This document shows positions 3,583 to 51,282 of a DNA stretch of 51,282 nucleotides, piece by piece. Where the stretch lies: the NCBI GenBank assembly GCA_044356215.1, contig JBIKWQ010000013.1:1-51282 (forward strand), read 5' to 3'. The translations under genes were made by a program, and so were the position numbers. This DNA comes from Bdellovibrionota bacterium. Its GTDB lineage: Bacteria > Bdellovibrionota_C > UBA2361 > OMII01. The notes beneath the pieces are model-generated. The model had not been told where the DNA came from. It made no database searches and saw nothing but the letters and a program-made list of their open reading frames with translations. Position 1 is the stretch's first letter; every line of letters begins with the position of its first letter.

Positions 3583-6387
3583 ATGAAGCCATTATCAACT
3601 ATCGCTAATTGCATGCGCCAAGATTGGGATCGCCGCGTTGAGCACGATTACCGTTTCTGGATCGCGAATGAGATCTCATCACAGTCTCTAATTTGGGAGG
3701 AGGGCGAGCGTGATTTCTCCCAGATTATCTCAGGAATTAATTTAACGAATCGAGATGTAGCTCTTGAGATCGGCTGCGGTGTTGGTCGGATGTTACCGGC
3801 GGCTAATAAGATCTTCCGCTCGGTTATCGGTGTGGATGTATCGCCACGGGCGATCTCTAAAGCTAAGGAGCTGTGTGAGTCTCTTAATCAGGACAGCCTC
3901 CAGATTGACCTCATAAATACGACCGGATCTGATCTGCAAGGGGTTCCGTCTAAGTCAATTGATCTTGTTTGGAGCTTCGCGGCGTTGCCGCATATGCCAA
4001 CTCGCATTTTCGCGGCGTATTTGACCGAGATTAAGCGAGTGTTGCGAGAGACTGGGGTCGCAAGATTACAGGTCTTTGTTGGACAGCAGGATAATCCAGC
4101 CGAGAGCGACACACTAAGGATGCGAGCCTACACCGAGAGCGCTATAAAGAAAGCGGTGACACTTGCAGGGTTAAAACTGACAGCGATAACCCAGGTTAGT
4201 ATGCCCCTGCAGGAGCTCTTAGAGGAGCTTTACTTACAACCGGTCCTGATCACACTAGAGCCGGACCAAGCAGGGTCGAAAGATCTAGACGAGATAGTCG
4301 CAGTGTTGCTGCCGCAAGGCGCAGAGCCCGAGGAAGCTGATATATCGTGCACGGAGTTCGAGGCGTGGATCGCTTTGCATTACGCTGATAGGTTGTATCA
4401 AGATGGTGAATATGACAGAGCGAAATCAGCTTTAGAGTATGTCGCTCAGCACTGCAGAGCCGCGGAGGTCGATGTACGCGAGGCCTTAAAGAAGTTATCT
4501 CAGCTCGCGGCAGAGAGGCAGGTAAGTGCTCATATGGCCGAGACTCAAGGTAAGACTGAGATCTATGACGCTAATTGCGAGGTGTTAAAGAGGCGCTTTC
4601 CTGAGATTTTTAATCAGTTGAGCGCAGAGCTCGCTACACAGAATCTACAAGTCGAGGTAAAAGCCAGCGCGGAAGGTCCAGTTTTGTGGGTCGGCCAGAC
4701 ATGCTTGGACCACCCTGAAAAACCGGTGTTAGCCGGGGATACATGGGCTAAACGCGCGAGAAACGATTCACGTTTAGCTAAGTGTCCACACATAGTAGTG
4801 GTAGGTTTCGCAGCGGGATATCACCTAGAGAGTTTAGTGAATAATGGAACTCAAGTAATATCTTGTGTCGAGACGAGTCTCGAAGTTCTGCGCAAGGCTT
4901 TAGAGGTTCGTAATCTTCGTCCGCTACTTGAAAAGCTAGCGTCGCTAACGATCTCAGAGAATGGGCTGCCAGACAATTTAGAGCCCGACGCAGAGATTAT
5001 AGTCAGACCTCAGACCCTGGTCATAGCTGGTGAAGCCGCGCAAACTATCTCAAGAAACTTTAATTCACGAAGAGGATCAGCGAACCTGCGGCCTAAGATG
5101 GCCGTGCTTGGGCCCCTGCACGGAGGAACGCTGCCGATCGGTCACTACACAACATCAGCGCTTAATAAACTCGGTAAAGCCGTTCGTGGCCTCGATATGA
5201 GCGGCTTTAACGGCGGCTTTGAAATGATCAACTCACTGACTAAGAACGATATAAGACAGCAGGTCTGCCGTCAGACCTACGTAGAGATGGTTTCATCGAT
5301 ATTACTCGAGTCATTTACTGAGAAGCCGATCGATATATTAATCTGCATGGCGCAGGCACCGATCTCAGGGAGAGCCCTCTCAGAGCTGCGTAGAAAAGGG
5401 GTGATTACTGTTCTATGGTTCGTTGAGGACTACTTGCGTTTTACCTATTGGAAAGACTACGCCAAGTATTTCGACTACGTCTTCACTATTCAAAAGGGCG
5501 AGTGCATCGACGCGATACGGAAAGCAGGAGCCGCTAACGTACATTATTTACCTACAGCATGCGATCCTGTGATTCATGCCCCTGTTAGCTTGACACCTGA
5601 GGAGCGGGCGCGTTGGGGATCTCCGATCTCATTTGTGGGTGCTGGTTATCACAATCGTCGTCAGACATTCGCCAGTTTAGCGCATCTGCCGTTTAAGATC
5701 TGGGGAACTGAGTGGCCAGCTTGCAAACCCTTTGATCGACTTATTCAGGAGGCGGGTCGCAGGCTTACTCCAGAGGAGTATATTAAGATCTTTAACAGCA
5801 CTGATATCAATCTCAACCTGCACTCAAGTAATGAGCGTGACGGAGTTGACCCAACAGGCGACTTTATTAATCCACGAACTTTTGAGCTGGCCGCCTGCGG
5901 AGTGTTCCAGTTAGTCGATGAGAGATCTCTTCTAGCTGAGGTTTTCGAGGCGGGTAAAGAGGTGGCTACGTTCTCAACAGTAGCTGAGCTTAAAGATAAA
6001 ATCTCTTACTACATGGAGCATCCAGAGGAGCGAGAGATAATAGCCAGGGCGGGAAGAGCTAGAGCTTTAAAAGATCACACTTATGAAAAACGCCTTGAGC
6101 AGATGCTAGAAATTATCTACGGAGCTTCTTATCAGCAGTTAAGGCAGCGAGCGAGCGAGAATCCGTGGGTTGAGATGATCCGGAAAGCCGAATTTGATCC
6201 GGAGCTGCGCGAGCGTTGCGAGCGAGCCTTTGCTCGGGGTGATGAGCCGCAGCTCGATGGGCTAGTCGCGGATATAGCGCTTGGACAGGGGCAGTTAACG
6301 GAGACGGAGCAGAAGCTCCTATTTCTGTTTCATGTCAGAAAACAGATTATTCGCATGGAGCACGAAGGGGCCGGAGTAAGGAACTAA
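3583..6387 (+). CDS. Fusion: class I SAM methyltransferase + TPR-like helix + Maf-like N-terminal region + CgeB-family glycosyltransferase
   Basis: LEIGCGVGR (SAM motif I); YDANCEVLKRRFPE..VVGFAAGYHL..CVE (Maf-like); LWFVED, YLPTACDP, SFVGAGYHNR, INLNLH, NPRTFELAACG, RALKDHTYEKR (CgeB/Glyco_trans_1_2). Confidence 0.75.
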   Translation: MKPLSTIANCMRQDWDRRVEHDYRFWIANEISSQSLIWEEGERDFSQIISGINLTNRDVALEIGCGVGRMLPAANKIFRSVIGVDVSPRAISKAKELCESLNQDSLQIDLINTTGSDLQGVPSKSIDLVWSFAALPHMPTRIFAAYLTEIKRVLRETGVARLQVFVGQQDNPAESDTLRMRAYTESAIKKAVTLAGLKLTAITQVSMPLQELLEELYLQPVLITLEPDQAGSKDLDEIVAVLLPQGAEPEEADISCTEFEAWIALHYADRLYQDGEYDRAKSALEYVAQHCRAAEVDVREALKKLSQLAAERQVSAHMAETQGKTEIYDANCEVLKRRFPEIFNQLSAELATQNLQVEVKASAEGPVLWVGQTCLDHPEKPVLAGDTWAKRARNDSRLAKCPHIVVVGFAAGYHLESLVNNGTQVISCVETSLEVLRKALEVRNLRPLLEKLASLTISENGLPDNLEPDAEIIVRPQTLVIAGEAAQTISRNFNSRRGSANLRPKMAVLGPLHGGTLPIGHYTTSALNKLGKAVRGLDMSGFNGGFEMINSLTKNDIRQQVCRQTYVEMVSSILLESFTEKPIDILICMAQAPISGRALSELRRKGVITVLWFVEDYLRFTYWKDYAKYFDYVFTIQKGECIDAIRKAGAANVHYLPTACDPVIHAPVSLTPEERARWGSPISFVGAGYHNRRQTFASLAHLPFKIWGTEWPACKPFDRLIQEAGRRLTPEEYIKIFNSTDINLNLHSSNERDGVDPTGDFINPRTFELAACGVFQLVDERSLLAEVFEAGKEVATFSTVAELKDKISYYMEHPEEREIIARAGRARALKDHTYEKRLEQMLEIIYGASYQQLRQRASENPWVEMIRKAEFDPELRERCERAFARGDEPQLDGLVADIALGQGQLTETEQKLLFLFHVRKQIIRMEHEGAGVRN

Positions 6388-6390
6388 ATC

Positions 6391-8052
6391 ATGAAGAAGC
6401 GACACCCACACAAAAATAAAGTTTTGCTGGTCAACATCACCCGCCTGGGAGATATGCTGCAGGCAACGCCAACTATCGCCGGTATTAAACGTGAAAATCC
6501 AGATTGCCATACCACCGTACTGGTGGAGAAACAGTTCGCGGATATCTGTCATGTTCTGCCCAATATCGACAGAGTGGTTAGCATAGATCTTAATTACACT
6601 TGCCGGTCACTTGCGGCTGAGCAGTCCGGAATTATTGACGCTTATAAGTACGTGTCTGAATTAGTAGATGGGCTTCAAGAGGAGAGCTTTGATTACTGCT
6701 TAAATATGTCCTCTTCCGCGTATACCGCTCTTTTACTCAAATTACTTAATATTCCAAAGACAGGAGGTTGGACCGCGGATGAAGAGGGGTACAGAGTGAT
6801 TGAGTCTGATTGGGCGCGCCTCTTCGCGACCTCAGTGCACTATCAGAATAGGCAGTATAATTCCCTTAACCTCGTTGACGTTTTTCGCTGCTCAGCGGAC
6901 GTGGAAGATCATCCGCATAAGCTACAGGTCAATATCCTACCTGAAGCAAAGAGATATGCAGAGGATTTAATAAGGAGCGCTGGCTTTACTAATTTCGGCC
7001 CATTGATTGCGGTTCAAGCTGGTGCCAGCCAGGCTAAGCGTCAGTGGTCGCCAGCTTTATTTGTTGAGATGGTAAAGATCCTCGATCGTGAATACAACGC
7101 GCGGATCATACTTACCGGATCTCCAAAAGAGATTTCGATCGTCCAGCCGATACTTGATGGATGTAATTCGCCAAACGTGTTCTCGGCTGTCGGAAAAACC
7201 TCGATTCCGCAATTAGCGGCCCTTCTCAAGGAGTGTCAGGTTCTTGTGACTGGAGATACTGGGCCGATGCATATCTCGGTGGCAGCAGGAACTCCAGTTG
7301 TGGCGATGTTTTTAGCCTCGGCGTATGGATTTGAGACAGGGCCCTATAGTGAGGGAAATATAGTATTACAGCCGGTTATTGGATGTGGTCCGTGTAATCC
7401 AAACAAATCCTGCAGTAGACCTGATTGCCACGATACGATATCGCCGCGATTAATGGCGGATCTCACGATGGCTCGAGTAGCTGGGGAGGTTACATCGATA
7501 TCCCGTGAGCAGGCAGATCCCCGAAGTGTGATGGTGTACAGATCAGTTTTTGATCAGTATGGATTCTGTGATCTTAAGCCGATTAACTCCTCAGATGGAG
7601 ACTCGTTTGCGCGCTACCGCGACGCTTATCGAAAACTTTGGTTAAACGATCTCGGTGGATACGAGGTACATGGAGACGTAGGAAGTCGTAAGCGTTCGTC
7701 TCGATCGAGTTTGGCGATGGCTGATGAAGGAGTTGATGGACTGCGCGAGATAGCCGATTGCGCCCAGAGAGGACAGGAGCTGATGCGACAGCTAAAGGAG
7801 CAGATCCTGGACACGCGAGCGCCGGGCTCAATACTGCAAAGAACAAATCTTGAGATAGTCAAATTAGACCGTGATATTGAGGAGTTAGGATATCACTATG
7901 AGCCGATAGGGGCGCTTGCCAAGATGTTTATGTTCGCTAAAGAGAATTTGGCGGGATCCGATCCCTTATCTTTAGCATCTCAAATGGACAGCGTATATCA
8001 CAACCTCGGTCGGTGGTGCCAGAAGTTCGGACACTTCTACCGGGAGAGCTAG
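6391..8052 (+). CDS. Glycosyltransferase family 9 protein with C-terminal helical extension
   Basis: RLGDMLQATP, GASQAKRQW, VGKTSIPQLAALL, TGDTGPMHISVAAGTP, CGPC..C..DC cluster. Confidence 0.85.
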   Translation: MKKRHPHKNKVLLVNITRLGDMLQATPTIAGIKRENPDCHTTVLVEKQFADICHVLPNIDRVVSIDLNYTCRSLAAEQSGIIDAYKYVSELVDGLQEESFDYCLNMSSSAYTALLLKLLNIPKTGGWTADEEGYRVIESDWARLFATSVHYQNRQYNSLNLVDVFRCSADVEDHPHKLQVNILPEAKRYAEDLIRSAGFTNFGPLIAVQAGASQAKRQWSPALFVEMVKILDREYNARIILTGSPKEISIVQPILDGCNSPNVFSAVGKTSIPQLAALLKECQVLVTGDTGPMHISVAAGTPVVAMFLASAYGFETGPYSEGNIVLQPVIGCGPCNPNKSCSRPDCHDTISPRLMADLTMARVAGEVTSISREQADPRSVMVYRSVFDQYGFCDLKPINSSDGDSFARYRDAYRKLWLNDLGGYEVHGDVGSRKRSSRSSLAMADEGVDGLREIADCAQRGQELMRQLKEQILDTRAPGSILQRTNLEIVKLDRDIEELGYHYEPIGALAKMFMFAKENLAGSDPLSLASQMDSVYHNLGRWCQKFGHFYRES

Positions 8053-8077
8053 GCTTAGGGGGCAGGGAAGGGGTTTT

Positions 8078-8680
8078 ATGATACAAGTTTCGATTAACAA
8101 CGAGATAGCTAATTTTGATCTCACTAATATAGTGAAGTTTACAGATCTTCTTGAGCTAGTTAAGACTCGCATAGATCCCGAGCATATGATCACGGCGATA
8201 ACGATCGATGGTCGCGAGCTAACCGATGACGAGTGGAGTCAGTCTGTTGCCCAGCTTCAAGGTGAATGCCTTGAGTTATTAACAGGACATCCAGATAATT
8301 ACGTCAGTGAAAAACTACAGGACGCTTCGCGAGTTGTGCGTTCATGTTTCTTCGAGTTCCGCGACGCCCGTAAGGGTTTTCAAGATGGTGATACAGTTTC
8401 TGGAAATAAGCGTTTGAAGGTAGCAGTAGATACGCTACGAGCTTTCTTTGATTGGTATGGAACTCTAGTTCAGTTAGTCTCAGAGACGAAGCGTGGCCGC
8501 CTTGATATCTCTCCACAAGTTACAGAGATCTCAGAGACCTGCAAAAAGATCTGTCAGCAGCAGTTATACCAATCTTGGTGGGCCTTGGGAGAGAGCTTAG
8601 AGAAAGAGCTTGAGCCCAAGCTCGATAAGTTAGAGGATGCCTGCCGTCGCGTCGCCCGGGAGATTCAGGCGTCTGCTTAG
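8078..8680 (+). CDS. Hypothetical protein (small beta N-terminal domain plus helical bundle) in the glycosylation locus
   Basis: 200-aa ORF with host-like composition, co-oriented between two GT genes, purine-rich SD-like upstream. Confidence 0.7.
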   Translation: MIQVSINNEIANFDLTNIVKFTDLLELVKTRIDPEHMITAITIDGRELTDDEWSQSVAQLQGECLELLTGHPDNYVSEKLQDASRVVRSCFFEFRDARKGFQDGDTVSGNKRLKVAVDTLRAFFDWYGTLVQLVSETKRGRLDISPQVTEISETCKKICQQQLYQSWWALGESLEKELEPKLDKLEDACRRVAREIQASA

Positions 8681-8787
8681 GAAGCGTAGACAAAAGTTTA
8701 CTAGCGCTAATTTTCGATCGGTAACGGCGCGAGCGTACCGTCTATAATAAAACATCTCATAAGCGAGCCATTGCCGGCCCTCCCTAG
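8678..8787. repeat. Degenerate member of the GGAAG-ended repeat family
   Basis: Left end TAGGAAGCGTAGACAAAA overlaps the stop codon; reverse complement of right end CTAGGGAGGGCCGGCAATGGCTCGCTTA matches 44837 CTAGGGAAGGCCGGCAAAACCTCGCTTA; TCGGTAACGGCGC shared with 44878-44890. Confidence 0.7.
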
Positions 8788-8918
8788 ACAAAACAGGGAC
8801 TTAATAGATTCTATAGACTTCTCTGCATTCTCCAAGATTTTTTCCGAAACCAATCCTCAACACTCGCATCCTAACATCTACGCCCTGGAATATGTGGGGC
8901 ATTAGGAGAGAAGAAACG

Positions 8919-11558
8919 GTGGCAAATTCACCACAAAAAGCAGGTGATAAATTTCGGATACTCATGCAGAGTAGGCCGAACGTATTCACGCAGCGCGGAG
9001 GTGATACGATCGTTCTTGAGCGTCTCAGTGACGGCTTAACAGCGCGTGGACACTCTGTCACTATTGATATTAGCGGGCAACATGATCCAGCGAACTTTGA
9101 TCTAGTTCATCTCTTCAATCTAGCGACCACAGCGATCACTTGGAGCTTCGCAGAGAAAGCGATAAACGCCAATGTGCCATATGTAGTCACCACTCTGTAT
9201 GAGGATATCCCATCTTTTCATAGGCAATCGCATTTAGTGGCCGCGAAAGCGATTCAGTATACTCAAGGTGGACAGATCCCAGGTTCATGGAGCTTGTCTT
9301 ATCAAGATCTAACGGCGCTTACTCCAGCTCCACGTTTTCTCGCAGATGACATAGTTCGTGGCGCGGCGGCACTTCTACCAAATGGAATGGGTGAGGAGTC
9401 AGCTATCAAGAGGGATTTCCCATCGATCAAGAGGTCGATGATAGTTCCAATGGGGAGTGAGGTTGGCGCGAGCGCTGGCCCAGAGCTATTTGAGAGTGCC
9501 TACGGTGAGCGTGATTTCATCCTGTGTGTCGGGCGCCTTGAATCACGTAAAAATCAGTTGATGTTGCTAAAGGCGCTTGAGGACTCTCCTCTAACAGTGG
9601 TGTTGGCTGCTGGAGGTTTCTCGTATCAGCCGCAATACGAGGCCGCGGTGCGCACTTTTAGGCGTCGGGGTAAGACTATTGTTCTCGGTTTAGTGGATCC
9701 GCGAATGCTTTCATCCGCCTATGCAGCATGCCGCACGCACGTTCTGCCGAGCTGGTATGAGTTGCCTGGTCTCGTTTCTCTTGAGGCCGCGGCTCACAAT
9801 AAAAATATCGTTGTAACGAGAACTGGAACTACGGCCGACTATGTCGGAGATAAGGCCTTCTATTGCCTGCCATGGGACGGTGATTCAATCCTGTCGGCGG
9901 TTACAGCGGCCTATTTCAGCCCCGCTAGAGAGGGTCTGGTTGATATGGCGCGGTCGTATTCGTGGAGTGCTTCGGTTGTAGAGACAGAGAGAGTGTACCA
10001 AGAGATAGCAACGCCTAAAAAATGGGCAGTAACGCCCAGTAAGGTTGAAGGAGCGGGAGAAAATGAGGCGCCTTCAACAAACGGAGAGAATAGTATGAGC
10101 CAAGAAACGTCTGAATTTAAAGATATGGTTGAGCGCGGAGAAGTTGCCGCTAAAGCTTCAGACTTTGGAACAGCGGATAAGCTGCTGGCGCAGGCTGAGC
10201 GAATAGATCCTCGGTCTACACGCGTGATGAAGGCCCGTGGCGCTGTGCTTCTGGCGCAGATGAAACCAGCGGACGCGCTTACTTTCTTTGATCGTGCTTT
10301 AGCGATTGAGCCTCAAGAGCCAAAGCTTTTGGCAGGACGCGGCATGTGCGACCTACTGATGAATCGCCCAGATAAGGCGATCTCATTCTTTGAGCGCGCT
10401 CTTCAGGTCGAGCCAGGGTATTTGGTCGCACTACATCAACTACTCGAGTGTAGTTACGCCACAGGAGCTTACCCTACAGCGTTAACAGCACTGACTAGGT
10501 ATCTACAGACTAAGCCAACTGATACGGACATCCGCTTTTGCTTGGCAGGATGCCTATTTAAAAACGGACAACTTGAGGCGGCATTGTGGGAGTTAGATAT
10601 AATTGAGAGATCTAATCCTGAGCATGCGGGAGCTCGTGAGCTACGTAAAATAATCGTTGAGGGCGCGACCTGTAGTAGTGATATGACCATGGCTACTCCG
10701 GAGCCGCGCTTAGTTCCCACAGAGGCAGGCGCTAATATTAAGGCGTCTCTTTCTGAGCTGTCAGATAGGATTAAATCTTGGAAGGTTGACGCCGCTCGAG
10801 CCGATACTGCGGAGGCCGTTAGTCAGTCGACACGGGAGACAGGCATCGAGCTTTCCGAGGACATGATCGCGCAAGCAATCGGCAAGATAGAGGACCTGAA
10901 GCGCTCAGGTGAGTTCACAAGCGCTATTGAGGAGCTCTCGAACCTAATCGCGTGTGGAGAGCTACGTTCTCCTTACCGTGAGATCGCTGATTGCTTAGCG
11001 GCTGAGTTCACCGTCTTAGGGGGTGAATTGACCAAAGCATCTGGTATGTACGACGAGATCCTAGGTCGCGATGCGACTTGTGCGCGAGCGCTCTGTGGTA
11101 AGGGGGCGTTAGCGGCGGAGGCCCAAAACTGGACCGCCGCGCGTAATTACTTCACGCAAGCCCTGGCCTCTGATTGTGAGAACGATGTGGCTTACGCGGG
11201 TATGGGTATCTGCTCAATGGCGGAGAACAACGCTGATAAGGCGTTCACATTCTTCCAGGCGGCGACAGAGAGAAACCCAGAGAATCACAGGGCGCTACTT
11301 GGACTCTTGCAGACTGGGTATCCACTTAAGCGCTATACAGAGATGGAGCGTATGCTGACAGCTTATCTGGATCTCCATCCAGCGAGTTTGGATATGTTGT
11401 ATTCATTCGCAGGTGTTCTCTTTGCTCAGGGTAAAGTTAACGAGGCAAAGATGGAGATCGAGAAGATCTTAATTTTTGAGCCAGCACATGAAAACGCTCT
11501 GGAGCTAAAGAATCTGATCGAACAGAATCCGAGCGAATCTGAGCAGGCTGTTTCGTAA
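8919..11558 (+). CDS. Glycosyltransferase family 4 fused to multiple TPR repeats
   Basis: RGGDT, DLVHLFN, VGRLESRKNQ, LPSWYELPGLVSLEAAA; C-terminal ~480 aa of TPR-like repeats; GTG 8919 after AGGAGAG. Confidence 0.85.
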   Translation: MANSPQKAGDKFRILMQSRPNVFTQRGGDTIVLERLSDGLTARGHSVTIDISGQHDPANFDLVHLFNLATTAITWSFAEKAINANVPYVVTTLYEDIPSFHRQSHLVAAKAIQYTQGGQIPGSWSLSYQDLTALTPAPRFLADDIVRGAAALLPNGMGEESAIKRDFPSIKRSMIVPMGSEVGASAGPELFESAYGERDFILCVGRLESRKNQLMLLKALEDSPLTVVLAAGGFSYQPQYEAAVRTFRRRGKTIVLGLVDPRMLSSAYAACRTHVLPSWYELPGLVSLEAAAHNKNIVVTRTGTTADYVGDKAFYCLPWDGDSILSAVTAAYFSPAREGLVDMARSYSWSASVVETERVYQEIATPKKWAVTPSKVEGAGENEAPSTNGENSMSQETSEFKDMVERGEVAAKASDFGTADKLLAQAERIDPRSTRVMKARGAVLLAQMKPADALTFFDRALAIEPQEPKLLAGRGMCDLLMNRPDKAISFFERALQVEPGYLVALHQLLECSYATGAYPTALTALTRYLQTKPTDTDIRFCLAGCLFKNGQLEAALWELDIIERSNPEHAGARELRKIIVEGATCSSDMTMATPEPRLVPTEAGANIKASLSELSDRIKSWKVDAARADTAEAVSQSTRETGIELSEDMIAQAIGKIEDLKRSGEFTSAIEELSNLIACGELRSPYREIADCLAAEFTVLGGELTKASGMYDEILGRDATCARALCGKGALAAEAQNWTAARNYFTQALASDCENDVAYAGMGICSMAENNADKAFTFFQAATERNPENHRALLGLLQTGYPLKRYTEMERMLTAYLDLHPASLDMLYSFAGVLFAQGKVNEAKMEIEKILIFEPAHENALELKNLIEQNPSESEQAVS

Positions 11559-17539: not shown

Positions 17540-17702
17540 TAGGGCGTCGCAGTGTTTTTGGTAAGTTACGGAGACAATTAGTAAAATATTTTTTACCACA
17601 GAGGACGCAGAGGACACAGAGAAAACCCCATAATTGCCCATAAAATGGCCGTTCTCTGTGTCCTCTGCGTCCTCTGTGGTGATAAAGAACTGCGATGCCC
17701 TA
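17540..17702. mobile_element. 163-bp MITE-like element with internal CAGAGGAC hairpin
   Basis: Terminal IR TAGGGCGTCGCAGT / ACTGCGATGCCCTA (13/14); internal perfect 29-bp IR 17595-17623 / 17652-17680; second copy at 51149-51282. Confidence 0.8.
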
Positions 17703-17770
17703 AGTTTGTACTAGCTCGTTGGATATGGTATCTCACAATGCTTAATTTTAGAGATTTAGGTAGTTTCGCT

Positions 17771-18832
17771 ATGGTGGCGTTCCGTTACAAAAATGTGTGC
17801 CTTGAGTCGTGCGCTATAACAGTGCCACCCCAAGTTCTTACATCAGCCGAGATAGAGGACCGCTTGGCGGAGGTCTACCGTGACCTCGGGATCCCGTTTG
17901 GCACACTAGAGCGTTTGACGGGAATCGCGGCGAGAAACTTCTGGGATATAAAGGAGCGCCCAAGCACCCTCGGCACCGAGGTTGTACGTAAGGCCGTTGA
18001 ACAATCAGGGTTTGAGCTAAGCGACATGCGAGCGCTCTTTAGCTGCTCGGTTACTCGTGATTACTTCGAACCTGCTACAGGCTGCATCATTCACAACAAC
18101 TTGAAGATGCCAGAGGACTCAATCGCGCTTGATGTTAGTAACGCCTGCCTAGGTTTCATGGATGGTCTCTTCTTCCTCGCGAACCTGATCGAAACTGGAC
18201 ACGTTAAGGCGGGAGTAGTCGTGTCGGCGGAGCACACAAGGGTAATAGTAGAGAATACTTTTAAGAGTGTGCTAGAAGGGAAAACCTTATCGCGTGACCA
18301 GCTGTTAAGGATGTTGCCTACATTCACAATCGGATCAGGCGCGGTAGCTTATGTTCTCTGCCACGAGAGCATCTCAAAGCATAAGCGCAAGATCGTAGGT
18401 GGCGCCACTCGCTCGGCCACTCAGCACTGCGATCTATGCCTAGGAAATGTTGATTATCACCTGGTTGATGGGCCACCACTTGGTCCGGTGATGGAGACAG
18501 AGTCGTCTAAGTTAATAGCCGCGGCCGCTGTGCTTGGTAAACAGACATGGGCCGATGCCTCTGAAGTTCTAGGTTGGACGAAGCAGGATGTTGATCACGT
18601 CTTCTGTCATCAAGTTGGGCGTCAGGTAAACGAGGCGTTTTACAACACCTTGGGCTTAGATCACACGAAGGAATTTATTATATATCCGACCCGCGGAAAT
18701 CTCGTATCAGCCGCTTTACCTACAGCGTTCGCTGTCGGAGTTGAGGAGAAGGGGCTTAAGAAGGGCGATAAGATCGTTCTGACCGGATTTGGATCCGGCT
18801 TGAACTCGCTCTTTATGGGAATCGAGTGGTAG
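17771..18832 (+). CDS. oleA: OleA thiolase-fold acyl-CoA condensing enzyme (FabH-like)
   Basis: SVTRDYFEPAT, DVSNACLGF (catalytic Cys), FCHQVG, GNLVSAALP, GSGLNS..GIEW; adjacent to oleBC and oleD. Confidence 0.88.
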   Translation: MVAFRYKNVCLESCAITVPPQVLTSAEIEDRLAEVYRDLGIPFGTLERLTGIAARNFWDIKERPSTLGTEVVRKAVEQSGFELSDMRALFSCSVTRDYFEPATGCIIHNNLKMPEDSIALDVSNACLGFMDGLFFLANLIETGHVKAGVVVSAEHTRVIVENTFKSVLEGKTLSRDQLLRMLPTFTIGSGAVAYVLCHESISKHKRKIVGGATRSATQHCDLCLGNVDYHLVDGPPLGPVMETESSKLIAAAAVLGKQTWADASEVLGWTKQDVDHVFCHQVGRQVNEAFYNTLGLDHTKEFIIYPTRGNLVSAALPTAFAVGVEEKGLKKGDKIVLTGFGSGLNSLFMGIEW

Positions 18833-18848
18833 GAGTTTAAGCCTTTAG

Positions 18849-21458
18849 ATGTCGGCGCAGCTTCTTCCATTTCAATCTCGGTTCGTATCTGTAGCTGGAC
18901 ACCGGATGCATTACATTGATGAGGGATCAGGTCCCGTCATCCTCTCCTTGCACGGTAATCCGACTTGGAGCTTTCTCTATAGGAATGTAATCCGAGAGTT
19001 GCGTGACTCTTTTCGTGTAATCGCCCCCGATTTTTTAGGGTGTGGTTTGTCGGATAGAACCCCAGGCAAGCGCTTTAAGGCGATCGATCGGATCAATCAA
19101 CTTGAGGAGTTCGCTCAAGCTCTAGGTTTAAACAAGTTCTCGATGTTGATGCACGATTGGGGCGGGCCACTAGGGACTGGCTTCATGCTTCGTAGATTGG
19201 ATTCAATAGAGCGCATCATTTACCTAAACACTACGCTCACAGAGACAGAGAGCCTGCCGCCGATAATTAAATTAGCTGCTTTTCCAATAGTAGGAAGAGC
19301 GCTCACTAGGCACACTGCTACGTTTGTTAAGTTAACAACGTCGATGGGCGCGCACCGAAAGCTGACACCAGATATAAAAGAGGGGTATTTAGCTCCTTAC
19401 ATAAATCGCAAGCAGCGCGATGCTATCTGGGATTTCGTTGACGATATTCCTTTTGATTTTAGTCACCCGACATATTCGCAGATGGTGGATATCGCCGCGG
19501 GTTTGCCAGAGATTGCGCGTAAACCAGTTAAGATTATCTGGGGCTTAAGAGATCCGTGCTTCCACCGTGAGATGTTAAGCAAGGTCGCGGCGCATTTCCC
19601 GAATGCTGAGATCTTAGAGATAGCTGATGCCTCACATCTAGTTCTAGACGATGCTCCGCAGATAGCGATTCCAGCTATAAAAGAGTTCTTCTCACGCCCT
19701 TTGCAGAGAGAAGCAACTGCACCTGAAGCCCCAGCGGCCACCCGTGAAGATGGAAGTATCCATGTAATCTATGATCAGGTGATGCGCTTAGCTGAGGAGC
19801 AGCCAAACCTTTCGGCGGTGATTTCGCCTCGGTGGGTAAGAGATCCTATTAACGGCAGTGCTCTTCACTACGCGCACACTACCTACGGAGAGCTGGCCAA
19901 GCTTGTTAATCAGTATCAACGTGGGTTAGCTGATTCAGGGCTCGCTCCTGGTGACCGCGTTCTTATGTTGGTGCAGCCTGGAGCTGATTTCTTAGCCTTA
20001 AGTGTAGCGATAGCTGGACGGGGCGCCACTCCGGTTTTTGTGGATCCAGGAATCGGTCTAGAGCGATTAACGAAATGTATTCAAGACGCGGCTCCTCACG
20101 CCTTCATCGGATCTCCTAAGGCTCATATCCTAAGGCACCTCAAGCGCAACCTCTTTAGTCGCTTAAAGTTTTACGTTACCGCGGCAGAGTGGGCGTTTTC
20201 GAGAGGGAAGTCACTCGGGCACTTTAAGCGTTTCGCCAATGCTTCGCTTGCTCCAGTTCCTCTTCCTGTGGTTAGTCACGATGGAACTTTCAAAGCGAAC
20301 AACGCCGCTTTGATCGCCTTTACATCAGGAGCCACCGGAACACCAAAGGGAGTGATCTTCACTAATGAGATGTTGGCCGCGGAGCTTCGTTTGATCCGTG
20401 ATGTGCTTGGTCAGCAGGTTGGCGGAAGAGATCTAACTCTATTGCCGATCTTCTCTCTGTTTAATGTAGCGCTAGGTGTCGCGAGTGTTTTCCCATCTAT
20501 GCCTGTCGGTAAGCCGCTTGCACTCGATCCGGCTCAGGTTGTTAAGTTGGTGCACGATCTCTCAATTGATAGCTCTTTTGGTTCTCCTACTCTGTGGAAT
20601 AAGATAGCTGATTATACATTCCGCACTGGCGCAACGATGCCCACGATGAAGCGGGTATTTATGGCGGGTGCCGCTGTTCCGGCAGCGACCCTCTCTCGAG
20701 TGCAAGGAGTTCTCCCTAACGCTTTAGTTTCTACACCATACGGCGCGACAGAGTGTTTACCTGTTACCTTTGTTTCAGCTCCGCAGTTGGCCTCAACTAA
20801 CAGGGCCGCTGCAACTACAGGCGAGATGGGAACCCTAGTTGGTAAGGCTGTTCCTGGTGTTGAGATACGGGTGATTAAGAGCTCGCTTGAGGCGATAGAG
20901 AGGATTGATCAAGCGGTTAATCTGCCAGCGGGCGAGATCGGAGAGGTGATAGTTTCAGGAGAGAACTGTAGCCCTGAGTATCTAAATCGACCAGACGCTA
21001 ACAGGCTAGGAAAGATCGCCGACGCCGAGCGTGGCTTTTGGCATCGCATGGGGGATCTAGGCTACCTTGATAGCGAGGGTAATCTCTATTACTGCGGACG
21101 CAAGGCGCACTCGATCTATACAGCGGAGCGAGCGTTTCACAGCGTTCCAGTTGAGGAGATCTTTAATCAGCTACCTAAAGTAAGAAGAACCGCGCTAGTT
21201 GGGATTAACTCAGGGAAGGAGCCGGCGCTGGTTGTTGAGCCGCTGCCGGAGTTCTGGCCTGACTCGCAATCCAAAGAAGATGCTTTTAAGGGGGAGTTGC
21301 GAGATTTAGCGAGTCAGAGTCATTTAACTGCTAGTATCTCTACTTTCCTGTTTCACAAATCATTCCCGGTTGACGCGCGTCACAACGCTAAGATCTTTAG
21401 AGAGCAGCTACAAGAGTGGGCTGAGAAGTCGTTAGGTGATCAATCCAAGGCGGCCTAG
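18849..21458 (+). CDS. oleBC: OleB (beta-lactone decarboxylase, haloalkane-dehalogenase fold) fused to OleC (AMP-dependent beta-lactone synthetase)
   Basis: HGNPTWSFLYR, HDWGG in the N-terminal ~285 aa; FTSGATGTPKG, TPYGATECLP, WHRMGDLG, FPVDARHNAKIFRE in the C-terminal part; one continuous ORF. Confidence 0.88.
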   Translation: MSAQLLPFQSRFVSVAGHRMHYIDEGSGPVILSLHGNPTWSFLYRNVIRELRDSFRVIAPDFLGCGLSDRTPGKRFKAIDRINQLEEFAQALGLNKFSMLMHDWGGPLGTGFMLRRLDSIERIIYLNTTLTETESLPPIIKLAAFPIVGRALTRHTATFVKLTTSMGAHRKLTPDIKEGYLAPYINRKQRDAIWDFVDDIPFDFSHPTYSQMVDIAAGLPEIARKPVKIIWGLRDPCFHREMLSKVAAHFPNAEILEIADASHLVLDDAPQIAIPAIKEFFSRPLQREATAPEAPAATREDGSIHVIYDQVMRLAEEQPNLSAVISPRWVRDPINGSALHYAHTTYGELAKLVNQYQRGLADSGLAPGDRVLMLVQPGADFLALSVAIAGRGATPVFVDPGIGLERLTKCIQDAAPHAFIGSPKAHILRHLKRNLFSRLKFYVTAAEWAFSRGKSLGHFKRFANASLAPVPLPVVSHDGTFKANNAALIAFTSGATGTPKGVIFTNEMLAAELRLIRDVLGQQVGGRDLTLLPIFSLFNVALGVASVFPSMPVGKPLALDPAQVVKLVHDLSIDSSFGSPTLWNKIADYTFRTGATMPTMKRVFMAGAAVPAATLSRVQGVLPNALVSTPYGATECLPVTFVSAPQLASTNRAAATTGEMGTLVGKAVPGVEIRVIKSSLEAIERIDQAVNLPAGEIGEVIVSGENCSPEYLNRPDANRLGKIADAERGFWHRMGDLGYLDSEGNLYYCGRKAHSIYTAERAFHSVPVEEIFNQLPKVRRTALVGINSGKEPALVVEPLPEFWPDSQSKEDAFKGELRDLASQSHLTASISTFLFHKSFPVDARHNAKIFREQLQEWAEKSLGDQSKAA

Positions 21459-21459
21459 T

Positions 21460-22491
21460 ATGTCGCAAAAGAGATATGTAATTACAGGCGGCGGTGGATT
21501 TGTCGGCAAGGCACTAGGAAAGGCCTTAAGATCTCGTGGTCATGAGGTTATCAGTGTCTCGCGTGGTGATTATCCAGAGCTTAGAGCTTTAGGGATTGAG
21601 ACAAAAAGCATTGATATATCCTCTGATCCGGCAGAGTGGAGAGATTTCTTTAAGGGAGCAGATGGAGTTTTTCACACGGCCGCCAAAGTCGATATGTGGG
21701 GTGACTACAATGCTTTCTTCAAGACTAATGTAGTCGGCACAAGAAACTTAATTCAGGTCTGCCGCGAATTGGGGATCCGCCACTTCGTCTACACAAGCTC
21801 CCCGAGTGTGATTCACGATGGTAGTGATCTTGAAGGGATCGATGAGAGCTATCCGTACCCGAAACATTTTGACGCCTTTTACCCTGAGACTAAGGCTATA
21901 GCAGAGCAAGAGGTAGTAGCTGCTAATAATGGCGATACTCTTCGAACTGTATCTCTAAGACCCCATTTAATCTGGGGACCAGATGACACTAATTTGGTGC
22001 CGACTATTTTAGAGCGCGCCAGGGCAGGCAAACTTACTCGCATCGGAGCTGGTCAGAACCTAATAGATCTAACATTTATCGATGATTGTGTCTCAGCGCA
22101 TATTTTAGCGATGGAGGCGCTTGAGAGAGATGATTCCACTGCTCATGGCAAGGTCTACTTTATAAGCCAGGGTGAGCCGGTAAATATGTGGGGCTGGATA
22201 GATCAGGTGCTGCTGCGTAACGGCCTACCAAAAGTTAGGAAGTCGATCTCAAAAGGTACCGCTCTTTTTATAGCCAGAGCGATGGAGCGAGTCTCTAAGG
22301 TGCTAAGTAAGGTAGGAATAAATTACACTCCTCTACTAACAGAGTTTCTTGTCTCTGAGATGGCGACTCATCATTATTTCTCGATCGATGCGGCCAGACG
22401 CGATCTGGGGTATCAGCCTTCGTGCTCTATTGAGGAGGGGTTAAGGAGAACTTTTACCTCCCCAATCCACCCGAATCCGAATCCCAAGTAA
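21460..22491 (+). CDS. oleD: OleD 2-alkyl-3-oxoalkanoate reductase (extended SDR)
   Basis: TGGGGFVG, FHTAAK, YTSSPSV, YPETKA, LRPHLIWGP. Confidence 0.88.
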   Translation: MSQKRYVITGGGGFVGKALGKALRSRGHEVISVSRGDYPELRALGIETKSIDISSDPAEWRDFFKGADGVFHTAAKVDMWGDYNAFFKTNVVGTRNLIQVCRELGIRHFVYTSSPSVIHDGSDLEGIDESYPYPKHFDAFYPETKAIAEQEVVAANNGDTLRTVSLRPHLIWGPDDTNLVPTILERARAGKLTRIGAGQNLIDLTFIDDCVSAHILAMEALERDDSTAHGKVYFISQGEPVNMWGWIDQVLLRNGLPKVRKSISKGTALFIARAMERVSKVLSKVGINYTPLLTEFLVSEMATHHYFSIDAARRDLGYQPSCSIEEGLRRTFTSPIHPNPNPK

Positions 22492-47626: not shown

Positions 47627-47747
47627 AGATGGCGCACAAGATGAAATTATGACTCTTTTCATCACTCACTGTCCTCGCCGCGCTCTTTGTTTTTCACGTT
47701 TTGACGGCTAATTTGCATATAAACGGCCAGATAATCTCTTTTGGGCA

Positions 47748-47776
47748 TTGACCTCAAATTAAACTCGCCACAGTAT
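47748..47776 (+). promoter_or_regulatory. Putative sigma70 promoter
   Basis: TTGACC-N17-CAGTAT; implied start near 47783, just before the structured region. Confidence 0.45.
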
Positions 47777-47785
47777 ATCGACGCT

Positions 47786-48075
47786 GCGCCGGCTGGCTAT
47801 TACCCAAATCCTGGGAGATAAGTCTTCACAGCGAGGAATCAGGACAACAAGTAGGTAAAACCCTTTTCTGGCTCGTCGATCTCTTTTACTCTTTGTTTAA
47901 ATGAAAACCTCGGCGGATCCTTTTTATACAAAGAGAGCAGCGAGAGAAAAGAGGGGGAGGGAAAAGGTGCAGCGTAAGAGATGTGGAGCCATGCCTGTCA
48001 GGACTGAGCTAATTTCAAGATTGTTATCGACACATCTCCCCCCTCAACTACTACTTGTGGGTAATAGCAAGGCGC
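47786..48075 (+). ncRNA. Candidate ~290-nt multi-helix structured RNA / 5' leader (unidentified)
   Basis: Mutually compatible nested helices closed by GCTATTACCCA/TGGGTAATAGC plus GCGCC/GGCGC; no convincing ORF. Confidence 0.55.
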
Positions 48076-48085
48076 GGTGACCGGC

Positions 48086-48787
48086 ATGAATTTAGTCTTT
48101 ATTCCAGTATACAACGAAGAGGCCCATATCGAGGGGCTGCTGCAACGCTTGAGAGAGGTGTATCGAGGCGATGTCCTCTTTGTTGATGATGGGTCGTGCG
48201 ATAGATCCGGCGCTATACTAGAGGCCCTCACCGATCCGCATACACGAGTGATCCGACAGCCAGAGAATAGAGGCTATGGCGCGACTATTATCCGCGGCTT
48301 CGCGGAGGCGCGAAAAGCTGGCTATGAGTATCTAGTTACAATGGATTCTGACGGTCAACACAAACCCTCCTGGGTCCCAGATTTTCTAGACGCTGTTAGA
48401 TCCTGGGATGTCGTGTCGGGTAGTCGTTACCTAGCGGATAGCGATTCATCTGGTAAGGTTCCAGAAGATAGACACAAGATAAACCGCGAGATAACCGCGT
48501 TAATAAATCAGGTTACCGGATTTGGTTTGACTGACTCGTTCTGTGGGTTTAAAGCTTATCGAGTATCCGCCTTGGCGAAACTTAAGCTTGAAGAGTCGGG
48601 ATACTCGATGCCATTACAGTTCTGGATTCAGGCTAAGGCCCACGGGCTGCGGGTGACGGAGCTGCCAGTTTCTAGGATCTATGATGATCCAAATAGGCGC
48701 TTTGGTGGCGACTTAGATGATCCACAACTTAGATTGAATTACTATCTAGAGACGATTAAGAGGGAGCGGGAGAAGTGGAAGATATAG
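48086..48787 (+). CDS. Glycosyltransferase family 2 (DPM1-like, no TM segments)
   Basis: FIPVYNEE, VDDGS.D, N.GYG, MDSDGQH, V.GSRY, D..CGFKAYR. Confidence 0.9.
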   Translation: MNLVFIPVYNEEAHIEGLLQRLREVYRGDVLFVDDGSCDRSGAILEALTDPHTRVIRQPENRGYGATIIRGFAEARKAGYEYLVTMDSDGQHKPSWVPDFLDAVRSWDVVSGSRYLADSDSSGKVPEDRHKINREITALINQVTGFGLTDSFCGFKAYRVSALAKLKLEESGYSMPLQFWIQAKAHGLRVTELPVSRIYDDPNRRFGGDLDDPQLRLNYYLETIKREREKWKI

Positions 48788-49467
48788 CTCTTATAGTCGC
48801 CCCGCACCAGGATGACGCTGAGATCGGCATGGGTGGAACGATCGTGGCGCTCCGGCAAAGTGGAGTCAGGGTTGTTGTGCTCGATCTGAGTGACGGCGAG
48901 CCAACGCCCTATGGTTCACAAGAGATTCGGGCGAAAGAAACGAAAGCTGCTTCGGCGATCTTAGGGGTTCAGGAGCGAATCTTATTAGGTCTGAAAAATC
49001 GGGAGATATTGGATAATGTTGATAATCGAAAGAAGATCGCTGAGGTTATTCGCGGTGTAAAACCAACTATATTGTTCGCTCCTTACTGGCAGGACGCGCA
49101 CCCCGATCACGTCCAGTCCTCGGCATTAGTTGACGCCGCTCGATTTTATTCTAAATTCGTTAAAACCGATCTAGCAGGGGAGCCCTGGTATCCGAGGAGA
49201 GAGTTTTATTATTTCTCAACTCATCTGCGAGTTAAGATCGCACCATCCTTTATCTTTGATATATCGGATCACTTAGAGAGAAAGATCGAGTCTATTCGAG
49301 CTTACGAGAGCCAATTTGTTAAACATCCAAGTAACGCTAAAAGGATCGATGCTATCCGAACTGAGGCGCTTTATTGGGGTGGTGAGATCGGAGTGTTGGC
49401 GGGTGAGCCGTTTGTAAGCAAAGAGCAGATAAGACTAGCGTCAGTCGACGCGTTGTTTGGCGCTTAA
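48775..49467 (+). CDS. PIG-L/BshB1-family N-acetylglucosaminide deacetylase
   Basis: APHQDDAEIGMGGT, DLSDGE....G....R..E...A..ILG, D.HPDH, K...I.AY.SQF. Confidence 0.88.
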   Translation: MEDIALIVAPHQDDAEIGMGGTIVALRQSGVRVVVLDLSDGEPTPYGSQEIRAKETKAASAILGVQERILLGLKNREILDNVDNRKKIAEVIRGVKPTILFAPYWQDAHPDHVQSSALVDAARFYSKFVKTDLAGEPWYPRREFYYFSTHLRVKIAPSFIFDISDHLERKIESIRAYESQFVKHPSNAKRIDAIRTEALYWGGEIGVLAGEPFVSKEQIRLASVDALFGA

Positions 49468-49474
49468 AGGGTAG

Positions 49475-50977
49475 GTGCGTGACATGGTTGATATCTGCGA
49501 GCCTCCTTACGCAAATTGGCACGAGATTTTAAAAATTAACCTGGCGTCGCGAACGGAGAGGGAATTAGCCCTAGGCGCCCCCCGTTTTAAAGCTATTCGC
49601 GATCAGTTGCTCTCTAGAGCGATAAGCTACACCAAGAGTCTTGTCGATTTAGCGCGCGCTAAAGGTCTTACAGAGATCACGGCTCCCACGGAGAACCAGA
49701 CTCAGGTTGAAAAGATCGTTATGACTGGTCATCAGCCAGTTATTTATCATCCTGGACTCCTTTATAAATTAGAAGTTTCGCGAAGATTTAGTCGCGATAC
49801 CGGAGCTGTTCCGGTGCAAGTTGTGATCGATACCGATGAGGGAGACGCTGGAAGTATAAGTTGGCCACTTGTATCCGCAGGAAATTTAGAGATTAAGCGC
49901 GCTTCGATCGGTTCCGATGGGGGAACGGATTCTCTATATTCAGAGCAGCGTGTCGCCGACGGTGATACAGTGACGCGGGTCTTCGACCAGATAATAGAGG
50001 ATCTAAAAACTAGTGGATTAGAGCAGGTAGCGAGTCGCGTAGTGGAGGTTAAATCAGCTTACGTCGCGTTGGCTGGTGAGTCGCTAATCGCCGCTAACTC
50101 TATAGTTAGGTGGCTTTTTAGTGATACGGCGATGCTAGAGGTCCCATTATCAGAGCTATTAAAAGTAGATGAGTTTAAAGCCGTACTTGAGGGGTTTTAC
50201 TCAGACGCTCCAAGACTTGTAGAGACATACAATGCGACCCTAGATAGTTATCGCAAAGAGCATCGGATAAGTAACGCGGCTAATCCCTTTCCTAATATGA
50301 AGATCGATCAACGCGGAGCCGAGGTGCCGTTGTGGAGGATCCTAAAGGGGACAAGATCTCCAGTTTTCAATAAATCGGATCTCCCTTCGCCGGTGGAAGA
50401 TGACGGCGGTTTTTTAGCTACACGTGGGAGCCTTACGACATTGCTTCTTAGAGCGTACTGCAGTGACCTCTTCGTGCATGGTTTAGGTGGAGGAAAATAT
50501 GATCGTTTCGTTGAGCAGTTCGCTAAATCGTATCTAGGGGTGACGCTGCCCACGTTTGTAGTCGCCAGTAGAACTGTATCGCTATTTCCGGAGAAGGTCG
50601 CGAAGTTATCTAGAGAAGTTGAGTTAGCCTCGAATGTAAAGGAGATGACCTCGAAGACAGAGCTGTTTTTGGGGCAGGGGATCTTTACCGAAGAGGAAGA
50701 GAGACAGCTTAAGGGTATAATAACAAAGCGCGATGAATTGCGCCTAAAGTTGCAGGGGCCGATTGAAAGCGACCAGCGCAGTGTGGTGTCGCGTGAACTC
50801 AGTGAGGAGAATAGGAAGGCGCGAGGAATTATAGAGCAAGGGAGCCTAAAGCCGATTATCGCGAGTGCAGCGGCAAATGAGGCGTTGCTAGCAAGATGGA
50901 GCTTTCGGGAGTTTCCGTTTTTTTACCGTAACTACTCACCGGATTTTTTGGATCGTTGCATTTATAGCATCGCCTAA
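49475..50977 (+). CDS. Hypothetical protein, distantly BshC-like (putative amide ligase)
   Basis: MTGHQPVIYHPGLLYK, VIDTD, LFVHGLGGGKYD in positions analogous to BshC TGQQ..LY..K / EDHD / GGPGE..Y; C-terminal coiled coil; follows a bshB-like gene. Confidence 0.5.
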   Translation: MRDMVDICEPPYANWHEILKINLASRTERELALGAPRFKAIRDQLLSRAISYTKSLVDLARAKGLTEITAPTENQTQVEKIVMTGHQPVIYHPGLLYKLEVSRRFSRDTGAVPVQVVIDTDEGDAGSISWPLVSAGNLEIKRASIGSDGGTDSLYSEQRVADGDTVTRVFDQIIEDLKTSGLEQVASRVVEVKSAYVALAGESLIAANSIVRWLFSDTAMLEVPLSELLKVDEFKAVLEGFYSDAPRLVETYNATLDSYRKEHRISNAANPFPNMKIDQRGAEVPLWRILKGTRSPVFNKSDLPSPVEDDGGFLATRGSLTTLLLRAYCSDLFVHGLGGGKYDRFVEQFAKSYLGVTLPTFVVASRTVSLFPEKVAKLSREVELASNVKEMTSKTELFLGQGIFTEEEERQLKGIITKRDELRLKLQGPIESDQRSVVSRELSEENRKARGIIEQGSLKPIIASAAANEALLARWSFREFPFFYRNYSPDFLDRCIYSIA

Positions 50978-51148: not shown

Positions 51149-51282
51149 TAGGGCTTCGCAGTGTTTTTGGTAAGCTGCTGAGACAATTAGTAAAATATTT
51201 TTTACCACAGAGGACGCAGAGGACACAGAGAAAACCCCATAATTGCCCATAAAATGGCCGTTCTCTGTGTCCTCTGCGTCCT
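51149..51282. mobile_element. Second copy of the 163-bp MITE-like element (cut by window end)
   Basis: Colinear with 17540-17673, 4 substitutions in 134 bp. Confidence 0.85.

Follow-up and report, generated by a model that had tools for sequence, protein, structure and literature searches.

Gene content of the locus

The analyzed stretch of DNA (the window) is a 51,282-nucleotide contig from the genome of a Bdellovibrionota bacterium, which is 3.24 Mb long and 96.5% complete. Three tightly coupled genes at positions 48086–50977 encode a family 2 glycosyltransferase (GT2), a zinc N-deacetylase, and a protein that is called X here. The cassette is a real and widespread variant of the bacillithiol pathway that is apparently undescribed. 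It has a different first enzyme in place of BshA, a re-tuned deacetylase, and a remote enzyme with the BshC fold. Its product is most likely a new thiol. The features of the locus are:

47627–48085, no strand: 460-bp intergenic gap between the flagellar genes upstream and the trio; presumably contains the trio's own promoter region
48086–48787, forward strand: GT2 gene, ATG start, 233 amino acids; subfamily similar to dolichyl-phosphate mannose (DPM) synthase, proposed replacement of BshA
48775–49467, forward strand: LmbE/PIG-L zinc N-deacetylase, BshB1-like, GTG start, 230 amino acids
49484–50977, forward strand: gene of protein X, 497 amino acids from ATG 49484 (500 amino acids from GTG 49475); predicted BshC fold, Rossmann enzyme similar to class I aminoacyl-tRNA synthetases, proposed to add the amino acid (cysteine)

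The open reading frames (ORFs) of GT2 and the deacetylase overlap by 13 bp, and a gap of 7 bp separates the deacetylase from X, when the latter is read from GTG 49475. This is the arrangement given in a preliminary description of the locus, which was made from the sequence alone. The description assigned 500 residues to the third protein. The motifs that it listed are present, but the start at ATG 49484 is more likely, because the 497-residue version is found in the protein collection and a purine-rich run is positioned 8 nt before this ATG. An in-frame GTG is located at 48077, upstream of the ATG of the GT2 gene. The intergenic gap does not contain an ORF of at least 80 amino acids, and a consensus scan of the gap identified zero promoters on the forward strand, with regional counts at the level of shuffled sequences. 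The GC content of the trio is the same as that of its flanks, and the search for mobile contexts yielded no X matches in plasmids, phages, or viral contigs. The trio is not a chance arrangement, because the profile of X matches 3362 representatives (50% identity clusters) and the gene order recurs.

Protein X has a predicted BshC fold

The structure of X was predicted with a local distance difference test score (pLDDT) of 93.9. A Foldseek search with the model, which the preliminary description had suggested as a check, identified BshC (4wbd) as the top match, with an E-value of 2.8e-11 and a template modeling score of 0.52. In a second structural comparison, 428 residues of X were aligned to 4wbd with a Z-score of 25.9 and a root-mean-square deviation (rmsd) of 9.1. 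The sequence identity to BshC is 10–12%. The runners-up were class I lysyl-tRNA synthetase (LysRS, Z 17.5) and MshC (Z 9.5). The model of X contains a Rossmann core with connecting peptides and a helical extension, as in 4wbd, and long helices are predicted in its C-terminal part (residues 369–383, 403–424, and 429–452). X contains the motifs TGHQP..HPG..YK, IDTD, and HGLGGGKYD, the core residues of which are 97–100% conserved in 293 rows of the family alignment. According to the available text of reviews, the BshC dimer forms through the coiled coil. The prediction of an X homodimer scored 0.00, relative to a mark of 0.42, and is evidence in neither direction.

The sequence of X has no significant match in Pfam, NCBIfam, or the PDB sequences, a profile search of which returned chance matches, and neither PF10079 nor TIGR03998 matches the protein. 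The hhalign comparison of X with the profile of 22 canonical BshC sequences gave a probability of about 1%, with two weak segments in which the motifs of X and BshC run in the same order. Therefore, the link between X and BshC rests on structure. The earlier wording of a divergent ligase (TGHQ versus TGQQ) was correct in that the fold is BshC-like, but it understates the distance. Judged from its model, X is structurally BshC-like, although by sequence it falls outside the BshC family. A feature search of the Atlas with X listed clusters bearing PF10079 at 0.87 and 0.81, which are leads only. A protein combining X, DUF1653, and GNAT segments (P0077) was seen once and had lost the C-terminal motif of X; it is probably a chimera or the result of a frameshift and was disregarded.

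X differs from canonical BshC in the invariant H89-x-G91, which has no counterpart there, and also has H83 and H332. In a by-eye comparison with LysRS, the HxG motif occupies what we take to be the position of the HIGH signature of synthetases. In sequence, X is roughly equidistant from BshC and the aminoacyl-tRNA synthetases, of which LysRS is second in the structural comparison. This distance, the rank of LysRS, and the H89-x-G91, H83, and H332 residues would suit an alternative that we consider unlikely, in which the same three steps yield a soluble product, with X adding an amino acid other than cysteine or an acyl group. The outcome would be an aminoacyl-glucosamine solute, cofactor, or metal ligand.

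Predicted acceptor site and interface helices of GT2

GT2 matches PF00535 with an E-value of 1e-28. Its best NCBIfam match is PpgS (NF058614), with 90 bits relative to the cut-off of 370, and it is below the cut-off of every family. The GT2 model (pLDDT 95.8) is closest to the DPM synthase (DPMS) of P. furiosus (5mlz; Z 25.1, rmsd 2.4, 220 aligned residues), followed by ArnC (Z 20.7) and GpgS (Z 19.4), and GtrB is also among the closest structures. No membrane-spanning segment was found in GT2, and in all 31 family rows analyzed the maximum Kyte-Doolittle value of a 19-mer does not exceed 1.64, in agreement with the soluble DPM1-like enzyme of the preliminary description.

According to the available text of PMC5526996, the reaction of DPMS is inverting, Arg117, Arg131, and Ser135 bind the acceptor phosphate, amphipathic interface helices bind the lipid, and the transmembrane domain is dispensable. 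The three residues align to R114, R129, and N133 of GT2, so that both arginines are kept and the serine is replaced by an invariant asparagine. R114, R129, N133, R204, R216, and Y220 are invariant in 83 distinct rows of the GT2 family. Interface helix 1 of GT2 is 15–35% hydrophobic (mean 26%) and contains 1–4 aspartates or glutamates (mean 2.35, n = 31 rows). In six of the seven GT2 paralogues from the same genome, whose acceptors are assumed, helix 1 is 35–60% hydrophobic and contains no aspartate or glutamate. Helix 2 of GT2 bears the invariant R216.

A lipid-linked product is improbable. In such a pathway, polyprenyl-phospho-N-acetylhexosamine made by GT2 would be deacetylated, aminoacylated, and then either transferred to the cell envelope or retained as a glycolipid. 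The polar and acidic character of interface helix 1 and the arginine in helix 2 argue against it, even though the closest structures of GT2 (DPMS, ArnC, and GtrB) are all polyprenyl-phosphate glycosyltransferases, PpgS is the closest NCBIfam family, most of the phosphate site is retained, and DPMS works without its transmembrane domain. The clustered neighbors include no flippase, GT-C transferase, or small membrane partner that is found repeatedly in different lineages. The cassette is present in lineages that we take, from the locus titles, to be both monoderm and diderm, which was also counted against a lipid-linked product. A lipid acceptor is disfavored only, because the hydrophobic moment of helix 1 overlaps between the GT2 family and the paralogues, and the inner hydrophobic stripe I132, I136, and L139 is kept where DPMS touches the isoprene units.

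The invariant Cys153 of GT2 was not used as evidence for a thiol, as unrelated paralogues have it too. At least two cysteines occur in the GT2 tail after the last conserved motif in 27 of 82 rows (for example L179:5162-5977), and none in the GT2 of the window.

Substrate pocket of the deacetylase

The product of the second gene scores 190.1 bits against TIGR04001 (BshB1), above the cut-off of 182.5, and its zinc-ligand residues H11, D13, D14, and H112 are present, as expected for the proposed BshB1/PIG-L deacetylase. In the alignment to 2ixd and 6p2t, the equivalent of BshB Arg53 is retained as R52, whereas that of Arg109 is an alanine. The latter position is not an arginine in any of the 59 rows from X-bearing genomes (54 distinct), and is an arginine in all 21 canonical BshB1 rows (19 distinct). 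We presume that the two arginines contact the malate part of the substrate. The X-linked deacetylases have their own invariant residues: GEPTP, N75-R76, R85, D107, R123, K127, and H150. These subfamily-specific residues may suit a different anionic aglycone. The available text of PMC4101496 describes the HxDD plus H zinc-ligand motif of the BshB family and docking that suggests contacts of Arg53 and Arg109 with GlcNAc-malate (GlcNAc, N-acetylglucosamine).

The loss of Arg109 in 59 of 59 rows is difficult to reconcile with synthesis of ordinary bacillithiol or its beta anomer, with GT2 acting as a non-homologous BshA that uses malate. The deacetylase score above the BshB1 cut-off would fit such a product, as would the X-bearing genome G089, which has YpdA (419 bits) without bshA or bshC. 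The soluble carboxylate-acceptor GT-A enzymes GpgS, MpgS, and MGS are the next structural neighbors of GT2 (Z about 18–19), and these are retaining enzymes. GT2 is clearly nearer to the inverting DPMS and keeps its phosphate-binding arginines. Since, in addition, all three enzymes of the cassette differ together from their counterparts, bacillithiol is the least probable of the products considered, with a very low likelihood.

Synteny and co-inheritance of the three genes

The conservation of the cassette was analyzed in the best 80 of 556 confirmed loci anchored on X. The order GT2, BshB1, X recurs at 26 of the 80, under several phylum labels, as would be expected from the proposal of a conserved three-gene synteny. 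The titles of the 26 loci include Bdellovibrionota, Coriobacteriia, Armatimonadota, Limnochordales, Nitrospinota, and several Candidatus genera; two that are titled Eubacteriales have the same neighbors as the Coriobacteriia loci. Other layouts are GT2-X (four loci), GT2-amidohydrolase-X (one), X beside the amidohydrolase alone (three), and X-BshB1 (one). X stands alone at 45 loci, mostly of Planctomycetaceae, five of which are on short contigs. GT2 directly precedes X in 30 of 40 further Planctomycetota loci.

The co-inheritance extends beyond linkage. In the 49 X-bearing genomes, which are a subset behind the 80 loci, the GT2 subfamily (threshold at least 290 bits, other GT2s at most 131) was found in 47, even when unlinked to X, and BshB1 above the cut-off in 42. 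Among 29 order-level relatives of the window's genome, the GT2 subfamily is present in 11 of 11 with X (three of which are also among the 49) and in 0 of 18 without X. The reverse test was anchored on GT2 in 80 metagenome loci, of which 35 have at least 1.5 kb of downstream sequence and the 45 shorter ones were set aside. Of the 35 longer loci, 32 have X near GT2, as do 49 of the 80 overall; canonical BshC is near GT2 in none of the 80.

Mutual exclusion of X and canonical BshC

The preliminary description noted the lack of bshA in the window. In the whole genome, no bshA exceeds the cut-off (best match 92.9 bits relative to 273.7), PF10079 (bshC) is absent, and searches for GshB, MshC, YpdA, and BrxA/B had no match. 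Neither bshA above the cut-off nor PF10079 was found in any of the 49 X-bearing genomes, the completeness of which is not given and six of which have some unscored bshA candidates. As a positive control, bshA and bshC were both found in three of five tested order-mates that lack X.

In 78 genomes of the same phylum that are at least 90% complete, X is present in 24, canonical BshC in 24, both in none, and neither in 30, relative to an expected overlap of 7.4. In 161 Planctomycetota genomes at least 95% complete, the corresponding numbers are 106, 24, 0, and 31, with an expected overlap of 15.8. The Planctomycetota lists were compared by eye, the expected overlaps assume independence, and Fisher values overstate the exclusion, because related genomes are not independent. 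A single family includes a genome with X (G033), one with BshC (G133), and one with neither (G132).

The complete exclusion in two phyla fits a shared job of X and BshC. Together with the deacetylase score above the BshB1 cut-off and redox genes next to X in four separate lineages, it speaks against the addition of an amino acid other than cysteine, which the scarcity of the thiol partner enzymes YpdA and BrxA/B would favor.

GshB exceeds the cut-off in one of 50 X genomes (G061, which lacks GT2 and BshB1), and MshC was found in none of five. The G061 bin, titled Emcibacter, contains an amidohydrolase-X arrangement (L044) like that of the Phycisphaerae locus L039, as well as GshB and class I LysRS, and is possibly affected by a mis-binned contig. 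A Coriobacteriia GshB-like match below the cut-off (L257, one of three checked) has other genes as its neighbors and was therefore not taken as a sign of glutathione synthesis. YpdA of the Nitrospinota genome G089, which has the trio (locus L151), is a candidate reductase for the product.

Accessory and redox neighbors

A family of Amidohydro_2 proteins tracks X within the order, with presence in 11 of 11 relatives with X and 0 of 18 without. Its member in the genome analyzed here is:

Contig C127, 738–1796, reverse strand, outside the window: amidohydrolase (Amidohydro_2), co-inherited with the trio in the order

In L039, the amidohydrolase gene is flanked by those of GT2 and X, and in G033 it is the first gene of an operon with both. 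It is absent from the searched Coriobacteriia and most Planctomycetaceae. It has no NCBIfam or PDB sequence match; it belongs to PF04909, and the Atlas gives "Amidohydro_2" alone. A role as a substitute for the deacetylase was rejected, as both are present in the same genome and genus. C127 probably adjoins the end of the window, placing the gene about 1 kb downstream, because the contig starts with the repeat of the window end and relatives have the corresponding downstream gene order; the repeat is common. This palindromic repeat of about 102 bp, located at 51193–51282 and 17584–17686 of the window, is presumably of the repetitive extragenic palindromic or miniature inverted-repeat transposable element type. 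In a blastn search of the genome with the last 90 bases of the window, 293 hit lines were returned, many with 100% identity and several at contig ends.

An Eis-like GNAT acetyltransferase is encoded near X in 11 loci, and directly downstream in the four genome loci checked. By analogy with mycothiol, it is possible that it performs an N-acetylating step. These GNAT proteins, which have an SCP2 domain, are encoded at L085:6045-7586, L081:9494-10864, L243, L245, L336, and six more metagenome loci. Redox genes that adjoin the cassette encode Thioredoxin_9 (5 of 80 loci), OsmC (6 of 80), superoxide dismutase (6 of 40), and YggX (one locus).

Proposed pathway

The observed folds, family scores, co-inheritance, exclusion, and residue changes make it probable that the cassette is a BshA-independent sister pathway of bacillithiol, producing a soluble cysteinyl-hexosamine thiol on a carrier that is not malate and is probably phosphorylated. 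In the first step, GT2 would transfer N-acetylhexosamine, likeliest GlcNAc from uridine diphosphate-GlcNAc, with inversion to a beta linkage. The acceptor would be small, polar, and anionic, neither malate nor polyprenyl phosphate, and probably attacked through a phosphate oxygen, as in DPMS. In the second step, the enzyme, which belongs to the zinc deacetylase family, would free the amine. In the third step, X, with its BshC-like fold, would join an amino acid, likeliest cysteine, to the freed amine. The product may take the role of redox buffer and cysteine store that bacillithiol has in sister lineages. The lineage-restricted amidohydrolase and Eis-like GNAT may tailor or recycle it. The preliminary description is supported, as none of the three outcomes that it named as refuting was observed: X has a BshC-like fold, the trio is syntenic under several phylum labels, and neither bshA above the cut-off nor PF10079 was found in the genome analyzed here or in the 49 X-bearing genomes. 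The preliminary description had left the choice between a different thiol and an aminoacylated glycolipid. The evidence leans towards the soluble thiol, because of the polar interface helix, the mutual exclusion with BshC, and the redox neighbors, and away from the glycolipid.

Several observations weigh against a cysteinyl thiol made by a BshC counterpart, beside the profile-level distance of X from BshC, the rmsd of 9.1 in their structural alignment, and the lipid-compatible traits of GT2 and DPMS. X has no conserved cysteine column (best 44%), and nothing in the protein points to cysteine. X is limited to four genera of its own phylum, and GshB exceeds the cut-off in none of the 30 genomes of this phylum with neither X nor BshC. 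Known thiol genes are thus often lacking, and the exclusion could therefore partly reflect ancestry. BrxA/B was found in none of five X genomes and YpdA in one of 49; the YpdA count says little, because the gene is equally scarce in genomes with canonical BshC (1 of 14). Each redox neighbor is limited to a single lineage and is absent, like the others, from most loci.

More speculatively, the product could be a cysteinyl-beta-hexosamine linked by a glycosyl-phosphate bond to a carrier that is small and polar. It could be the principal redox buffer, so far missing, of many uncultured lineages and approximately two thirds of Planctomycetota, and X, in view of its HxG motif, could be a reconstitutable ATP-dependent ligase. 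According to the available text of reviews from 2015 and 2018, the addition of cysteine by BshC has never been reconstituted in vitro. If X were such a ligase, it would offer a way into this reaction.

In the available text of Hiras et al. 2018 (PMC6282198), Planctomycetes are among the major lineages without a documented or predicted low-molecular-weight thiol. How many Planctomycetota were already predicted to make bacillithiol may be seen from the genome lists of that paper and of PMC12719100. The cassette is a concrete candidate gene set for 106 of the 161 sampled Planctomycetota and scattered members of several other phyla. It is masked by automatic annotation, in which the deacetylase is labeled BshB1 and X belongs to no family. 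If the proposal is correct, the product would extend the known thiol backbones of glutathione, mycothiol, and bacillithiol by a new one, and X would represent a second branch of the BshC fold, the chemistry of which was still called unsolved in the available parts of the reviews.

Other features of the window

Positions 17645–22491 contain a ketosynthase III-like gene, a fusion of alpha/beta-hydrolase and AMP-binding domains, and a reductase similar to 3-beta-hydroxysteroid dehydrogenase, a layout that we take to be an oleA-oleBC-oleD olefin cluster. Positions 3583–11558 contain genes of a methyltransferase-glycosyltransferase fusion, GT9, and GT4-TPR proteins. These are perhaps for flagellar glycosylation, which is suggested by the flagellar genes in the window.

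Comparison with known systems

A description of the cassette was not found in the literature searched, which covered few subscription papers. The bacillithiol pathway (BshA, GT4, TIGR03999; BshB1, TIGR04001; BshC, PF10079, 4wbd) has the same gene logic of glycosylation, deacetylation, and acylation. In the weak hhalign segments, BshC and X have a common motif order of GHQ/GQQ, Lys, DTD/EDHD, ExPxW..R, LLR, and GGxxY. In contrast to the GT4 enzyme BshA, the first enzyme of the cassette is a DPMS-like GT2 with a GT-A fold, and its deacetylase lacks the Arg109 that BshB1 keeps. None of the genomes searched combined the cassette with bshA or bshC.

The mycothiol pathway (MshA, MshA2, MshB, MshC, and MshD, as listed in the available text of PMC4360819) shares the logic of cysteinyl-glucosamine and a ligase similar to class I synthetases. 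MshA is a GT4, unlike GT2 of the cassette, MshC matches X at Z 9.5 only, and no conserved phosphatase neighbor was seen at the cassette. MshD is loosely paralleled by the GNAT near X, which is Eis-like and restricted to some loci. A phosphorylated acceptor of GT2 would parallel that of MshA, which we presume to be phosphorylated.

The polyprenyl-phosphate glycosyltransferases (DPMS 5mlz, ArnC, GtrB, and PpgS) share with GT2 the GT-A fold, the DxDxQH motif, and the arginines that bind the acceptor phosphate. At 26% identity, GT2 differs from these enzymes in the replacement of Ser135 by an invariant asparagine, in its polar interface helices, and in having its own C-terminal motif RxF..LD....R...Y.

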